Part shown: positions 10,780-24,255 of the stretch, piece by piece
Layout of the letters: each line of letters opens with the position of its first letter
Numbering within the stretch: position 1 is the stretch's first letter
Assembly: GCA_038889235.1 (NCBI GenBank)
Contig: JAWAHN010000001.1
Span: 824,499 to 856,498 of the forward strand
Source of the DNA: Candidatus Jordarchaeales archaeon
GTDB lineage: Archaea > Asgardarchaeota > Jordiarchaeia > Jordiarchaeales > Freyrarchaeaceae
Reading direction: 5' to 3'
DNA: 32,000 bases
The notes under the pieces: generated by a model
Told to the model about the DNA's origin: nothing
Database searches by the model: none
Seen by the model: the letters and a program-made list of their open reading frames with translations, nothing else
Made by a program: the position numbers and the translations under genes

Positions 10780-11052
10780 GTGGCATTAAGGCCGGGAAGT
10801 ATTTGCGTTAAAACGGCTGGAAGAGAAGCTGGAAAGAAGTGCGTTGTTGTAGATATTTTGGACAAAAACTTTGTTTTAATAACAGGACCGCCAGCTCTAA
10901 GTGGTGTTAAAAGAAGGAGGGCAAACATTAAGCACCTAGAGGCTACAGGGGAATATATAGATATACCTAAAGGGGCGGACGACGAACTCGTATTGAAGAA
11001 GTTGGAAGAAGCAGGGTTAGCTGAAAAGATTAAGGAAAGAATTAAAATTTAA
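10780..11052 (+). CDS. rpl14e: 50S ribosomal protein eL14
   Basis: GSICVKTAGREAGKKCVVVDILDKNFVLITGP and VKRRRANIKHLE motifs; GTG 10780 follows a GGAGGTGG SD. Confidence 0.96.
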   Translation: MALRPGSICVKTAGREAGKKCVVVDILDKNFVLITGPPALSGVKRRRANIKHLEATGEYIDIPKGADDELVLKKLEEAGLAEKIKERIKI

Positions 11053-11083
11053 GCTAAATTATATTCTTAATTAAGATCTTCGT

Positions 11084-11109
11084 TTATTTCTAAAAGGTTA
11101 TTTCTAAAA
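11084..11109 (+). repeat. Direct repeat TTATTTCTAAAA x2 (14-nt period) in the very AT-rich gap upstream of cbf5
   Basis: Copies at 11084-11095 and 11098-11109, read directly. Confidence 0.75.
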
Positions 11110-11147
11110 TTAATTTAATTTATTTAAAAGTACTTAAATAAGAAGTA

Positions 11148-12205
11148 GTGGTGGTTGTGTTGCCCAGGATGCTCCCGCCGGAGGGTGTAAAGAGGAAAAT
11201 TATAGTTAAAAGTGATGACGAAACTAGCGAAGAATATGGTAAGCGCCCTGAAGAGAGAAGCATTGAAGAGCACTTGAAGGGATGCTTCGTTAACATAGAT
11301 AAACCAGCAGGACCTACTAGTCACGAAGTCTCTTCTTGGGTTAGGAAAATTTTGGAGTGCTCGAAAACGGGGCACGCCGGAACACTAGAGCCCCTTCTCA
11401 ATGAGGGGGGCGGTGAAATCCTAAGGTTACCGGCGTTCTACCAGTGGCTATAGGTTCGGCTACCAAGCTTGTACAAGCTCTTCACCTTATAGGGAAAGAG
11501 TATGTATGCGTTATGAGGTTGCATGGCGATGTTGACCCGGAGAGAGTTCAAAGCGTCTGTAAGGAGTTTATTGGACCGATTTATCAAAGGCCTCCAATAC
11601 GTTCCTCTGTGAAGCGGAGGCTTAGGGTGAGACAAATATACTACCTTGATGTGCTCGAAATTGAGGGGAGAAACGTCTTACTAAAAGTGGGGTGCGAGTC
11701 TGGCACGTACATAAGGAAGCTTTGCCACGACATAGGAGAAGTCTTGGGTTGTGGAGCGCACATGCGTGAGCTTAGGAGAACGCGTAGTGGACCATTTACT
11801 GAAGACAATATTGTAACTTTGCACGACTTAAAAGATGCTTACGTTTTCTGGAAGGAAGAAAAGGACGAGACATATATTAGAAAGGTGTTATTACCCTTGG
11901 AGACTGGAGTGCAACACTTACCCAAGTTTTACGTGCGTGACTCAACTGTTGATGCCATATGCCATGGAGCAGATTTAGCCATTCCCGGAATTGTCAAAGT
12001 TGAAGATGGAGTTGAAAAAGGGGATGTTGTGGCGATTTTGACGCTCAAAGGCGAACTTGTCGCCCTAGGGACTGCAATGATGACGCTTGAGGAAGTTATG
12101 AGGGAGAAAAGAGGTATAGCTGTTAAGACAAAAAGAGTGGTGATGGAGAAGGGTACGTATCCGAAGCTTTGGAAGAGCAAGAAAGAGTCGAACAAAAGTG
12201 GGTGA
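11148..12205 (+). CDS. cbf5: Cbf5/TruB pseudouridine synthase, spliced: join(11148..11388,11418..12205), 342 aa (335 aa from ATG 11169)
   Basis: Two track ORFs join to give GHAGTL-D-PKVTGVLPVAIG after removal of a 29-nt BHB intron. DKPAGPTSHEV, YQRPP, SGTYIRKLCHD and a PUA domain are present. Confidence 0.96.
11389..11417 (+). other. BHB-type mRNA intron in cbf5 (29 nt)
   Basis: Central helix CACU/GGUG, bulges AG^A and AA^A, intron hairpin GCCCCU(U)CUC-AAU-GAGGGGGGC. Splicing recreates GAT (catalytic Asp). Confidence 0.93.
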
Positions 12206-12220
12206 AAGTGAGGGGGGTCC

Positions 12221-12234
12221 CGAAAAATATAAAA
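12221..12234 (+). promoter_or_regulatory. Candidate BRE/TATA promoter for rpl44e-rps27e-eIF2a
   Basis: CGAAAAATATAAAA about 50 nt upstream of the rpl44e TTG. Confidence 0.55.
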
Positions 12235-12284
12235 TCGCGCTGAATTTTTCCTTTCCCAAAAGCGATGCGGAGGTTAGGTGAGGG

Positions 12285-12601
12285 TTGAAGTACCCCAAAG
12301 TTAGGCGGACGTATTGCCCACGGTGTAAGAAGCACACGGAACACATGGTTAGCGTTTACAAGAAAGGAAAAGACCGAGCTTTAGCCGCGGGAGCTAGACG
12401 CTACGCTAGGAAGAAGCGAGGTTACGGAAGCCAGCCTAATCCCTCCTACGCTGCGTAGAGGGGGGTAAACCCGTACAGAGAGAGTTTGCGAAAATAACTA
12501 AGAAGGTAAGCTTTAAACTGAAGTGTAAAGAGTGCGGGCACATTCTACACACGAAGGGCATTCGCCTGAAGAAGGTCGAGGTAGTTGAGAAAGGAGGGTG
12601 A
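12285..12601 (+). CDS. rpl44e: 50S ribosomal protein eL42 (L44e), spliced: join(12285..12439,12469..12601), 95 aa; absent from the ORF track
   Basis: Manual translation [20 protein letters not shown]...[10 protein letters not shown]|[24 protein letters not shown]...[10 protein letters not shown]. Canonical position before rps27e. Confidence 0.95.
12440..12468 (+). other. BHB-type mRNA intron in rpl44e (29 nt)
   Basis: Central helix GCCU/GGGU, bulges AA^U and AA^A, hairpin CCCU(C)CUACG-CUG-CGUAGAGGG. In-frame TAG at 12456. Splicing gives CCT AAA CCC (P-K-P). Confidence 0.92.
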
Positions 12602-12607
12602 TATACG

Positions 12608-12814
12608 TTGCGGAAGAAGCGTGAAATTATCCCGCAGCCTAAAAGCCGTTTCTTGAAAGTCCAATGCCCTGACTGTGGCGCGGAAAACATACTTTTCGAT
12701 AGAGCTAGCACTGTGGTCAAGTGCCATATATGTGGCACAATACTGGCTGAACCTAGTGGAGGAAAAGCACACTTGTTAGTGAAGGAGGAAAACATAGTAC
12801 AAGTTTTGAGTTAA
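12608..12814 (+). CDS. rps27e: 30S ribosomal protein eS27
   Basis: IPQPKSRFLKVQCPDCG, FDRAST and VKCHICGTILAEPSGGKA motifs. Confidence 0.97.
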   Translation: MRKKREIIPQPKSRFLKVQCPDCGAENILFDRASTVVKCHICGTILAEPSGGKAHLLVKEENIVQVLS

Positions 12815-12837
12815 CCAAATTAAGAGGTCGTGGCAAA

Positions 12838-13632
12838 TTGGTTAAACTTAGAAAAGAATACCCAGATGAAGGAGATCTGGTAGTGGCAACTGTAACGAGA
12901 ATAGCAAACCATGGAGCCTATGTAACGCTTGACGAGTACGAAGGAAAAGAAGGGTTGGTCCATATTTCAGAAGTCTCCCAGAGCTGGGTTAGAAACATAA
13001 GGAATTTTCTCAAGGAAGGACAAAAAGTTGTTGCTAAGGTTTTAAGAGTGGACAAGAAGAAGGGTTTCATAGACCTTTCTCTTAGAAGAGTGACTGAACA
13101 GCAAAGGAAACAGAAGATACAGGAGTGGAAGAGGGCGCAAAAAGCGGAAAGCTTGCTTGAACTTGCAGCTAAAAAGCTGGGGAAAACGATTGACGAAGCA
13201 TACGAGAAAGCAGGATGGCCCCTCGAAGACAAGTACGGGGAGATATATGCTGGCTTTGAGAAAGCCGCAGAAAAAGGGGAGCAACCACTTATAGAGGCGG
13301 GTGTTGACGAAGAATGGAGTAAGGTGCTTGCGGAGCTAGCTAAAGCATACGTCGAAATTCCAAAAGTTAAGGTAAGAGGGATCCTAGAACTAACATCCCT
13401 CAGAAGGGATGGGATAGAGGCTATTAAGAAGGCTTTAATCGCCGCTGAAAGTGTAGTTAAAGACGGGGATGTTAACGTTGAAATCTACACTATAGGAGCG
13501 CCGCGTTATAGGGTGGAAATATCAGCCAAGGATTATAAGCAAGCCGAAAACGTGTTAAAAGACGTGGTTTCCACGGCTTTGGCAGTAATTAAGGAAGAGG
13601 GAGGAAGTGGAACGTTTATACGTGAGAAATAA
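12838..13632 (+). CDS. eif2a: Translation initiation factor aIF2 alpha
   Basis: PDEGDLVVATV, GAYVTLDEY, GFIDLSLRRV and YTIGAPRYR motifs. Confidence 0.97.
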   Translation: MVKLRKEYPDEGDLVVATVTRIANHGAYVTLDEYEGKEGLVHISEVSQSWVRNIRNFLKEGQKVVAKVLRVDKKKGFIDLSLRRVTEQQRKQKIQEWKRAQKAESLLELAAKKLGKTIDEAYEKAGWPLEDKYGEIYAGFEKAAEKGEQPLIEAGVDEEWSKVLAELAKAYVEIPKVKVRGILELTSLRRDGIEAIKKALIAAESVVKDGDVNVEIYTIGAPRYRVEISAKDYKQAENVLKDVVSTALAVIKEEGGSGTFIREK

Positions 13633-13635
13633 ATA

Positions 13636-13812
13636 CTACTCTTTTTGCGTAAGCTCTTTCTTCAGTTTCCGCCTCCATTCTCCGAAACGGTCTTCTAGAG
13701 AAAACTTAGGAGGGTGAGGAATTTTTAATTCCCCTCCACAGTAGGGGCACAAATCTTGTTTTAAGGTATATCTTTTGCAGGAAGTACACTTCCTAAGTAA
13801 GAACCCTGCCAT
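13636..13812 (-). CDS. nop10: Nop10 H/ACA RNP protein, 58 aa; absent from the ORF track
   Basis: Manual translation MAGFLLRKCTSCKRYTLKQDLCPYCGGELKIPHPPKFSLEDRFGEWRRKLKKELTQKE*. YTL, CPxCG and PHPPKFSxEDxF are Nop10 motifs. Confidence 0.95.
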   Translation of the reverse strand: MAGFLLRKCTSCKRYTLKQDLCPYCGGELKIPHPPKFSLEDRFGEWRRKLKKELTQKE

Positions 13813-13839
13813 TACTTACGCACTTCTCCTTGCGCACTT

Positions 13840-16377
13840 TTAGGATTCGGATGTTACTTCAACTATTATTTCTCTTGTGAAGTCAGGTATCGATGTTTCG
13901 ATCTTTAGAGGGACATGTACTCCTATTTCGAAAGTTAAATTGCTGGTGAACGGCACTTGAATGATCTCTCCCGGGTTAACTTTGACGGGCGAAATATTGC
14001 ACAACGTGTTGTTAAGGTAGACAGCAGTCACGTTGAAAGAAACACGACCAATATTCTGAACATGCACCAGACCGCTCCCATTTGTATAGACACTTGCGGT
14101 GATATTCATGTTGGCATCCAGTATCGAGTAGTCTATTTCGTATATTTTGACCAAGTGGTTGCTGGATATAAAGACCGGTTTGAAGTACTTTAGAATACTG
14201 AAGTTGCTCCAACCGGAGTACCAGCCAGGCTTTGCTTCAACCTCTCTATAGGAAATTACGAGTGGAAAGTTATTCTGCTTCATATACTGATACAACTGGT
14301 AGTCTAGTATTTTTTCACTGTAAACGGGATAGACTTCCGGTGGCGGGTCATGATAGTAGAGAAGCTTGTAGAGGGTTGTATTGAAGAACTTTGGTGTATA
14401 GATAGTTCCGGTTAATGTTGGAGTGTAGTACTCGTATTCCCATGCAGGTGGGGAGGGGAAAATCCATGGAGTGGAGAGGTATACGTCAAAAGGAATCCTT
14501 ACCATCCATATCCACTTCCCTTCATCCCCGTGGAGGTTTGGGTCGTTGTGGCCAAAGTACACTAAAACGTGAGTTGCGTTAAAGAGACGTAGAATCTGCA
14601 GGCTTTCCGTCTCATTTGTAGTAGTTAAAGCGCGCCCTATGAGCGCTATCTGGGTAGTGTTAAGCGTAGCATTGTCGACTATCGTCGTCTTATTACCGCG
14701 AACCATAATCCAGTAACCATAGTCCCACCAGGAAGCCACTATGGCGTCTTCGGGAAGCTTGTTCTGCATGAAGATAAAGGCTTCAAACCAGTCTAAATAC
14801 ACATTTCCATAACGATCTCTAGGGACAAATTGGGGAGCACCGGAATAAATGGCTACAGTGGCACCATGTGAGAACGAGAAGAACAGGATAAGACCTGTTA
14901 AAATGAGAACTGCTGCCGCAGATTCCCTCCCAAGAATGCGCTTCACAACCGCGTACCTTCTCTTAACAATAATTTTTTGTTCTCCGGACACGATTTTCGA
15001 AAGTGGGCTGTATATTCGTGATAAAGCAAAGCCGGCAAACAAGCAGGCTATGGGGGCAAACAAAACTATCAGGCGAACCATGGAAGACGCGAAGTAAACT
15101 GTTGTTAGACCTAGAAGTATAAGAAATATGTCTTCATCCTTTCTTCTCTGAAACGCTAGGTACATTCCTACGGGGAATAACAGCACCGCTACGTGGAGAT
15201 CGTAGAAGATCATAGCCCACGACGGCAACGCGTGCTCAGCAACGCTAGCCACGATAATCTCTTCTTGCCTATAGGACGGTACGACTACTGATAGATACCT
15301 GCCGCTGATGCTGAAAATCGATTGGGTGAAAGTGGACAAGGCAAGAGAGAAAAATGGGTTCATAGACGCCGCAAACGTGATTACAATTAAGATAGCTGCC
15401 AACGAAGCTACCGCTATGATGGTTATGTTCCGTTTGTTCCTAAGTTTTTCATAGAGTTGAGGGGTTTTTCTCGAAATAGCAGTTAGAAGAGGAGTTATGA
15501 ATGGCTTGATTCGAGGGGCTGCTTCCAAAACCACCAGTAAAGCTAGAATCAACATTGCCGGGAGGGAGGTGCTTGAAACCATGTAGCTGCTGCCATGGAA
15601 TGGAATTCTTGTCCCCACGAAGACGCCAAGCAGAACTGTGATGCTATAACTTAACAATAAGTTGGTTGAATATCTTTTCATCAACACTAACAGTACCACT
15701 GTTAAAGGGTAAATGTAAAGTAGGTACATAGAGGCGCCCCAGCTAGCTATAAATCCTCCAAGGGCTAATCCGGAAATAACTGCTGAAGAAACAGACGATT
15801 TCTTCAACGACCTTATGAAAAAGAGGAGGGAGAGAAGGAAGAAGAATAGGCCGACACATTCGTTGTCAACCAGCCCTGCTATAGATCGTTCAATGGCCCC
15901 TGGTAAGAACGAGTACATGAATGAAGAGATTAGGCCAGCCGTGTCATCTAGCACTTCTCTCCCAATGAAAAAGATTAAAACACATGATGCCGCGCCCATA
16001 ACAGCTGGGAGAACATAGCATACAGTGTTTATGTCAACATTGAAACCCAAAGCTTTCAAGAAAAAGAAAAAGGCAGCGGCTGTGAATGGAACACCAGGCA
16101 AATACTTTTGCGACATATCTAATCCATGAGGATACCACATTTTCGGATTGTACCAACCAAACCACGCAGAGTAGCCGTAAATCGATATGAAGGCTGCCTG
16201 GTAGTATTGTATTGTTGAGTCATAATCGGATATGTAAGGAGGGTATAAGAAGAACGGGTAGAGTCTTAACAGGAAACCGAGAAATGTTATAAAAGAAACG
16301 CCTAAAGCAGTAAGCAGTATGCGGCGACTCACTTTAAGTTTAACTCCGCTAAGTACGGCATTAAAAAGGGAAAGCAA
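13840..16377 (-). CDS. aglB: Oligosaccharyltransferase AglB/STT3
   Basis: RSIAGLVDNE, SVAEH, MVRL, WWDYGYWI, DNAT and GKWIWMVRI motifs; multi-TM N-half and a beta-rich C-terminal extension. Confidence 0.96.
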   Translation of the reverse strand: MLSLFNAVLSGVKLKVSRRILLTALGVSFITFLGFLLRLYPFFLYPPYISDYDSTIQYYQAAFISIYGYSAWFGWYNPKMWYPHGLDMSQKYLPGVPFTAAAFFFFLKALGFNVDINTVCYVLPAVMGAASCVLIFFIGREVLDDTAGLISSFMYSFLPGAIERSIAGLVDNECVGLFFFLLSLLFFIRSLKKSSVSSAVISGLALGGFIASWGASMYLLYIYPLTVVLLVLMKRYSTNLLLSYSITVLLGVFVGTRIPFHGSSYMVSSTSLPAMLILALLVVLEAAPRIKPFITPLLTAISRKTPQLYEKLRNKRNITIIAVASLAAILIVITFAASMNPFFSLALSTFTQSIFSISGRYLSVVVPSYRQEEIIVASVAEHALPSWAMIFYDLHVAVLLFPVGMYLAFQRRKDEDIFLILLGLTTVYFASSMVRLIVLFAPIACLFAGFALSRIYSPLSKIVSGEQKIIVKRRYAVVKRILGRESAAAVLILTGLILFFSFSHGATVAIYSGAPQFVPRDRYGNVYLDWFEAFIFMQNKLPEDAIVASWWDYGYWIMVRGNKTTIVDNATLNTTQIALIGRALTTTNETESLQILRLFNATHVLVYFGHNDPNLHGDEGKWIWMVRIPFDVYLSTPWIFPSPPAWEYEYYTPTLTGTIYTPKFFNTTLYKLLYYHDPPPEVYPVYSEKILDYQLYQYMKQNNFPLVISYREVEAKPGWYSGWSNFSILKYFKPVFISSNHLVKIYEIDYSILDANMNITASVYTNGSGLVHVQNIGRVSFNVTAVYLNNTLCNISPVKVNPGEIIQVPFTSNLTFEIGVHVPLKIETSIPDFTREIIVEVTSES

Positions 16378-23856: not shown

Positions 23857-24255
23857 ATCAATACATAGATGGCTTCTCTGCCTTAAGTAAATTACAGGAA
23901 TCCCCGCCTTTCTGAGACGCTTGCGAAGAACATTGTCGTTGGTGGCAACGACGCAACGTTCCCTTCTGGCGTATTCAAGTATAGCATCATCTACACCCAC
24001 ACTCTCAACCCCTGACGGGCAGACCTTAAAAGCCTTCTGCCTGACGAAGTTTAAAGCTGCCTTGGCTAGTTTTCCCCCCTCGCTGCCCTTCTCAGCCAAC
24101 TTTTCTAGCTCTTCTAGCACCTTATCTAGAACCACGACCTCGTAACTTCTACCAACGACAACGCCCAGTTCCGAGAAAAAATCCCTCCCGAACAGGAAGG
24201 GAGCTATTAAAAAGTTGCTGTCAACAACTATCTTAACGTATGAGCCCCCACCCAA
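23842..24255 (-). CDS. PIN-domain ribonuclease (Fcf1/Utp24-like), eIF2g-linked
   Basis: IVVDSNFL, VLEEL, VDDAIL, VATNDNVLRKRL and GIPVIYLR motifs; TTG 24255 follows a GGAGG SD. Confidence 0.92.
   Translation of the reverse strand: MGGGSYVKIVVDSNFLIAPFLFGRDFFSELGVVVGRSYEVVVLDKVLEELEKLAEKGSEGGKLAKAALNFVRQKAFKVCPSGVESVGVDDAILEYARRERCVVATNDNVLRKRLRKAGIPVIYLRQRSHLCIDGEIL

Follow-up and report, generated by a model that had tools for sequence, protein, structure and literature searches.

Bulge-helix-bulge (BHB) introns in the pre-mRNA of crenarchaeal cbf5 were reportedly described by Watanabe in 2002 and by Yoshinari in 2006. The BHB intron of the cbf5 pre-mRNA is documented in the Desulfurococcales and Sulfolobales of the Crenarchaeota (Yokobori 2009, PMC2738675), and among the references of a 2025 paper on splicing endonucleases those on this topic are the cbf5 papers only. 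In the literature searched, endonuclease-spliced introns in archaeal coding sequences are confirmed for cbf5 of the Crenarchaeota only; the same literature reports no BHB introns in the protein genes of Asgard archaea and no intron in any archaeal ribosomal-protein gene, in agreement with the original prediction for the locus described here, which had stated that none was known. Among eukaryotes, the HAC1 and XBP1 mRNAs undergo an unconventional, stress-regulated splicing by IRE1 and RtcB (reviewed in PMC13149111).

Closest in lineage are the non-canonical tRNA introns of the Jordarchaeia (Jordi- and Freyrarchaeaceae) and Atabeyarchaeia. The tRNA genes of the Jordiarchaeaceae and Freyrarchaeaceae hold, on average, 2.01 and 2.42 intervening sequences per gene, respectively (10.64898/2026.10.13.758758), and 92-95% of the tRNA genes are interrupted in complete genomes of the Freyarchaeia and Atabeyarchaeia (10.1101/2023.11.21.568159). 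Non-canonical motifs, the HBh' form among them, are cut only by the (alpha-beta)2 and epsilon2 types of the splicing endonuclease EndA, and the Asgard archaea possess an (alpha-beta)2 EndA with an L1 loop (PMC5829648).

The window (the whole stretch of DNA analysed, 32,000 nt, from a member of the Jordarchaeia) very probably contains a relaxed BHB intron of the tRNA type within the coding sequence of the single gene for the ribosomal protein eL42 of this Asgard archaeon. The gene and its predicted interruption are arranged as follows.

12285 to 12439, + strand: exon 1 of eL42 (rpl44e), with a TTG start, codons 1-51 and the AA of Lys52, from the ORF list and translation
12440 to 12468, + strand: predicted BHB intron of the HBh' type, 29 nt, in phase 2, dividing the Lys codon as AA/A
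12456 to 12458, + strand: in-frame TAG, which closes the unspliced frame after six foreign residues (NPSYAA)
12469 to 12601, + strand: exon 2 of eL42, with the last base of Lys52 and then PVQREF...CKEC...EKGG, stop codon at 12599-12601, from translation

The ORF at 12285-12458 (+) begins with a typical eL42 N-terminus that extends to ...KKRGYGSQP and continues through NPSYAA to the TAG, while the frame from 12467 reads KPVQREFAK...CKECGH...EKGG up to the stop at 12599-12601. Exon 1 corresponds to positions 1-36 of Pfam PF00935 (Ribosomal_L44, 76 positions; E 3.4e-12) and exon 2 to positions 37-76 (E 3.3e-11), and these half-matches abut exactly at 36/37, both above the curated 25-bit cut-off. 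The 29-nt insert introduces a frameshift and the in-frame TAG into eL42. Removal of 12440-12468 produces CCT AAA CCC, the motif GYGSQPKPVQ and a protein of 95 residues, with a predicted spliced junction of ...AGCCAGCCTAA joined to ACCCGTACAG...; as both borders carry a TAA, the register of the intron may slide (12437-12465 to 12440-12468) with no change in the product. The original prediction had described a hidden rpl44e gene with a 29-nt, TAG-bearing insert in GYGSQP/KP, and both the abutting gene halves and the insert were found where it had placed them. Of the intact rpl44e paralogue that it had also raised, there is no trace in the genome (2.14 Mb in 8 contigs; completeness 95%), which offers the two halves and no second eL42 match anywhere.

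The surroundings are those of a ribosomal-protein gene in its conserved operon context (L44e-S27e-aIF2alpha), with Cbf5 and an L14e-like gene upstream and eS27 (12608-12814) and aIF2-alpha (12838-13632) downstream. The nop10 gene at 13636-13812 (-) lies tail to tail with aIF2-alpha, just downstream of aglB, and is not co-oriented behind aIF2-alpha here. Exactly the same insert is found in a further two MAG assemblies of this species (GCA_038821275.1 and GCA_038886715.1), with the locus present on 9 contigs, and is therefore not an artefact of assembly. Public gene calls on these sister assemblies give eL42 (1178-1351) as a 57-residue fragment ending at the TAG.

The RNA structure proposed for the intron is composed of the following elements.

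12423 to 12427, + strand: 5' strand (UACGG) of a weak, offset outer helix, paired with 12471-12475
12434 to 12437, + strand: 5' strand (GCCU, exon 1) of the central 4-bp helix, paired with 12463-12466
12438 to 12440, + strand: bulge at the 5' splice site (AAU), with cleavage predicted to follow 12439; AA invariant in 10 of 10 species
12441 to 12462, + strand: inner intron hairpin (h'), which folds with 9-10 bp, one bulged C and the loop CUG
12463 to 12466, + strand: 3' strand (GGGU, intron) of the central 4-bp helix, with pairing across 10 species
12467 to 12469, + strand: bulge at the 3' splice site (AAA), with cleavage predicted to follow 12468; AA invariant in 10 of 10 species
12471 to 12475, + strand: 3' strand (CCGUA) of the outer helix, partner of 12423-12427

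Two 3-nt bulges on opposite strands are separated by a helix of 4 bp, the inner helix h' adjoins the 5' splice-site bulge, and the 5' exon end pairs with the 3' end of the intron, as in a tRNA intron. If both bulges are cut behind their second base, the frame is restored and the product is collinear with intact eL42. The structure departs from the strict hBHBh' form on its outer side, where the sole candidate for an outer helix is offset by 6 unpaired bases from the central helix; as this helix does not adjoin the 3' bulge, the motif belongs to the relaxed HBh' form. Across 10 species the outer helix has 80% of its cells paired, a value to be read with the constraint of the GYG and KPV codons on both of its strands. 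The hairpin between GCCU/GGGU and the AAU/AAA bulges, the offset UACGG/CCGUA helix six unpaired bases away and the classification as a relaxed BHB had all been part of the original prediction, and each was recovered.

Viewed singly, the structure is unexceptional. Folding of the single sequence does not surpass that of shuffled ones (z = -0.40), and 15,808 loose BHB-like motifs occur in the genome. What makes the case for an intron is that the motif coincides precisely in register with the break of the frame and that nine other species conserve it with covariation. In the sequence of the window two of the central-helix pairs are G-U, and a longer hairpin is favoured as the minimum-energy fold (-23.0 vs -22.1 kcal/mol for the BHB). 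This longer hairpin was rejected as the functional fold, as it cannot form in two of the species (G002 and G003), while the BHB is possible in all ten. A scan for promoters and terminators, using models of bacterial promoters, returned nothing useful.

A conserved regulatory hairpin or some other RNA element, whose processing would fall to a different enzyme from the splicing endonuclease, is very unlikely to account for this structure. The outer side does fail the strict BHB definition and endonuclease cleavage at this site is a prediction, yet eL42 would still require the precise removal of 29-33 nt, the 4-bp helix, 3-nt bulges and cut positions are exactly those of an endonuclease substrate, and Rfam holds no relevant family match to the sequence from 11000 to 14000.

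The comparison across the class supports the BHB intron. An insert occurs at the same codon in 10 of the 11 species genomes of the Jordarchaeia, in three lengths.

29 nt: G000, G001 and G004
30 nt: G002 and G003
33 nt: G005 and G007-G010

The inserts are regarded as homologous because they share the core CUAC...GUAGAG. The eleventh genome (G006), which is complete at 3.6 Mb and belongs to the same genus as five of the carriers, is without the insert and reads CAGCCTAA-GCCAATACAG, exactly as the predicted spliced junction; the original prediction had obtained CCT AAA CCC from the canonical cuts, this was reproduced from the window, and the corresponding junction is present in the DNA of this species. 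In the alignment of the 10 species with inserts, 89.8% of pair cells are paired, as opposed to 35-52% when the partners are slid by 1-3 columns, though such pair statistics overstate independence because the ten species are kin and four are nearly identical. Pairing in the central helix reaches 97.5%, G-C alternating with G-U and C-G with U-G where the exon base falls in the third position of its codon; in the hairpin it reaches 91.8%, and 3 of the pairs there have both partners altered. G007-G010 adopt the BHB as their unconstrained minimum-energy fold, while in G005 it ties with the minimum and in the other five species it lies 0.1-2.3 kcal/mol above it. It is the structure and not the sequence that is conserved in the ten species. 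From this distribution we infer that one gain of the intron in the ancestor of the class, followed by one precise loss, is the simplest history.

The wider sample comprised 151 Asgard genomes, each at least 80% complete, and a PF00935 match was found in 149 of these; among the matches listed (two are absent from the table), the 139 other Asgard genomes with an eL42 match are all uninterrupted. A further 52 loci are likewise contiguous; they belong to Thermoproteota, to a single Lokiarchaeial genome and to a few records whose taxon label is different or missing. The nearest named loci are those of Candidatus Jordarchaeum sp. LHC_1308 and of Jordarchaeia archaeon QC4. Two Asgard genomes, G027 (98% complete) and G134 (81% complete), are the only ones of the 151 with no PF00935 match, although members of the same genera have one, and their eL42 could be concealed by an interruption that is longer or sits elsewhere, or by a contig break. 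Additionally, several Asgard families (e.g., G041, G013 and G034) have stop-free eL42 matches of 243-249 nt, roughly 21 nt above the usual 225-228. These probably reflect a protein insertion of 7 residues, and in-frame, stop-free mini-introns may be the alternative.

Translational recoding, in which ribosomes would bypass the insert (as in phage T4 gene 60), shift frame or read through it, is exceedingly improbable. The 33-nt inserts lie in frame and are flanked by AAA...AAA, which could act as take-off and landing codons, and a hairpin follows the take-off site. In the 29-nt forms, however, the codon at landing (GGU or GGC-AAA) does not match that at take-off (CCU or AAU). Read-through or frameshifting would add about 9 foreign residues to a motif shared unchanged by 13 of 16 other eL42 proteins, and would take two events where both TAG and TAA occur. 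The exon-intron helix of 4 bp and the AA bulges are conserved though bypassing has no need of them. Use of TAG for pyrrolysine has been reported only in the Sifarchaeia among the Asgard archaea (PMC9723677), and decoding of this kind could not in any case mend a frameshift of 29 nt.

The predicted spliced products behave as a gene under selection. Those of the 10 species align without gaps to intact eL42 of the Odin-, Hel-, Hod- and Bathyarchaeota, and GYGSQPKP(V/I)Q is common to all of the Jordarchaeia products and four of the six references, with the other two differing by one and two residues. Of the 16 other eL42 proteins in the alignment, 13 have an identical GYGSQPKPVQ motif, and all but one of the 17 aligned sequences retain CPRC and CKEC, the exception (P0025) having CKEN at the second pair. 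Exon 1 supplies CPRC and exon 2 supplies CKEC, such that two of the four cysteines lie in each half; the cysteines of the CxxC...CxxC arrangement in eL42 are zinc ligands. Codon differences are predominantly synonymous, with 38 synonymous and 9 non-synonymous between G000 and G001 and 48 and 11 between G000 and G004. Both eL42 exons are under purifying selection.

A decaying pseudogene, with eL42 inactivated by the insertion and either dispensable or replaced, is hardly credible against this background. The unspliced frame does amount to 57 residues and the public gene calls yield only the fragment, yet this is the sole copy of eL42 in the genome, selection has acted on both halves over a deep divergence, none of the ten species has an additional frameshift or stop in eL42, the insert is fixed at one site with its structure maintained, and eL42 is matched in all but two of the Asgard genomes sampled. 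Least credible of all is a split gene, in which two separately translated polypeptides would assemble on the ribosome: two open frames each cover half of the PF00935 domain, yet the exon-2 frame, read by eye, has no ATG, GTG or TTG from the TAA at 12437-39 up to exon 2, the ORF list gives no + strand ORF of at least 20 aa for this frame, 29 nt is too short for a ribosome-binding site, the zinc-ligand cysteines are divided 2+2, and the insert lies in frame in G002, G003 and the 33-nt forms, leaving no separate second ORF.

An intron spliced by the tRNA machinery requires the corresponding enzymes, and the genome encodes two EndA paralogues and RtcB (E 1.6e-180). The chains most like EndA1 (196 aa) are 3p1z_B, 3ajv_B, 2zyz_B and 2cv8_A, which we take to be catalytic subunits of crenarchaeal heterotetramers. 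In the alignment the stretches with Tyr, His and Lys, presumably the catalytic triad, are conserved in EndA1, as is an L1/CSL-like loop (GQPL..KP....F..PL). EndA2 (195 aa) has Val at the position of the His, and is thus assigned as the structural (beta-like) subunit. Judged from its gene products, the genome encodes a splicing endonuclease belonging to the (alpha-beta)2 type, and the pairing of EndA1 with EndA2 agrees with the type described for Asgard archaea (PMC5829648).

The 29-base intron almost certainly must be excised from the eL42 mRNA. In the proposed mechanism, the (alpha-beta)2 endonuclease would cut the eL42-eS27 transcript after 12439 and 12468, and RtcB would join the exons to give CCU-AAA-CCC and an eL42 of 95 residues, the four zinc-ligand cysteines of which would come from both exons. 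As the unspliced mRNA would supply only the 57-residue fragment, the synthesis of eL42 would depend on the tRNA-splicing enzymes. Searches for the spliced product were uninformative: a search of a protein collection with exon 1 recovered no full-length Jordarchaeum eL42, the best match being 75% identical and from the Odinarchaeia, and the absence carries no information. Two 26-mers of the spliced junction, one exact and one degenerate so as to cover four Jordarchaeum species, had 0 matches among JGI metagenome contigs, an absence that says little, and the contigs found to encode the downstream eS27 belong without exception to DNA assemblies of this species, each of which bears the intron.

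The predicted eL42 intron shares several attributes with the described systems. As with cbf5, the host has a hetero-oligomeric splicing endonuclease, the intron shows both gain and loss among relatives, and the interrupted gene is mis-annotated by gene callers. It differs in that the host gene encodes a ribosomal protein, the lineage is Asgard (Jordarchaeia) and not Crenarchaeota, and the splicing of eL42 is deduced from genomic sequence. With the tRNA introns of the Jordarchaeia and Atabeyarchaeia it has in common the lineage, the presumed enzymes, similar sizes and, within the class, repeated gains, whereas those reports deal with tRNA genes only (10.1101/2023.11.21.568159; 10.64898/2026.10.13.758758). 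The likeness to HAC1 and XBP1 is one of working and not of membership: in both cases an mRNA intron would be removed independently of the spliceosome by a protein endonuclease acting at structured sites, with a change of frame and with sealing by RtcB (in metazoa), but IRE1 acts on paired stem-loops, under regulation by stress, and EndA on a bulge-helix-bulge.

The eL42 insert has potential counterparts, alike in build, in the same window.

11389 to 11417, + strand: insert in cbf5, 29 nt, with the central helix CACU/GGUG, the bulges AGA and AAA and a hairpin of a C-run with a G-run
25482 to 25450, - strand: first insert in aIF2-gamma, 33 nt
25435 to 25407, - strand: second insert in aIF2-gamma, 29 nt, with the helix UGGC/GCCA and the bulges AAU and AAA, splitting the Lys codon of the P-loop (DHGKTT)
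about 21611 to 21598, - strand: insert in a kae1-like gene, 14 nt, read by eye

The cbf5 gene is split into ORFs at 11148-11453 and 11444-12205, and removal of the insert restores GHAGTL-D-PKVTGVLP; in GCA_038821275.1 and GCA_038886715.1 the gene is called as two overlapping genes (63-347 and 338-1099). This insert would place a cbf5 intron in an Asgard lineage, where the published cbf5 introns are from Crenarchaeota only. The aIF2-gamma gene appears to carry two inserts, with a micro-exon of 14 nt (25449-25436, -) between them, and the ORF called for it (24233-25432, -) has a start that leaves out the P-loop. Such introns would lead to a systematic mis-annotation of marker genes. A census of BHB motifs with spliced ORFs over the whole genome was set aside, as its 601 candidates compare with 585-604 when the 3' cut is shifted by 1-2 nt and it therefore does not discriminate; filtering on A-rich bulges left 17 candidates, which include cbf5 and eL42 and are mostly noise. 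Within this noisy census, GC-rich inserts of 28 and 27 nt, at G000:C1 ~964006 (+) and G000:C3 ~304882 (+), have perfect central helices of 4 bp and join long open frames upon removal, and it is possible that these are additional mRNA introns.

With eL42, the introns spliced by endonuclease in coding sequences would gain one more host gene and one more phylum, and the intron would be one conserved across a whole Asgard class. An essential ribosomal-protein gene that would be untranslatable without tRNA-type splicing extends the phenomenon to the core of translation, and its occurrence in the phylum nearest to the eukaryotes is relevant to when, and in what manner, introns first came to be tolerated in protein genes. 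The precise loss in the complete genome of G006 serves as a natural control, confirming the junction at the level of DNA, and provides material for the study of intron loss. There are practical implications as well. The eL42 protein is a phylogenomic marker in some sets of ribosomal proteins (e.g., PMC3082918), and as gene callers return the fragment of 57 residues, eL42 will be truncated or missing in annotations of the Jordarchaeia; estimates of completeness, marker-gene trees and inferences of gene loss for such lineages can be biased. It is conceivable, if doubtful, that the introns of cbf5, eL42, kae1 and aIF2-gamma, all within 14 kb, gate the output of translation by the capacity for tRNA splicing. 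Should this be the case, these introns would form a set placed in conserved motifs of the translation-machinery genes of the Jordarchaeia, and the production of ribosomes and initiation factors would be coupled to the tRNA-splicing enzymes of a lineage whose own tRNA genes are heavily interrupted.
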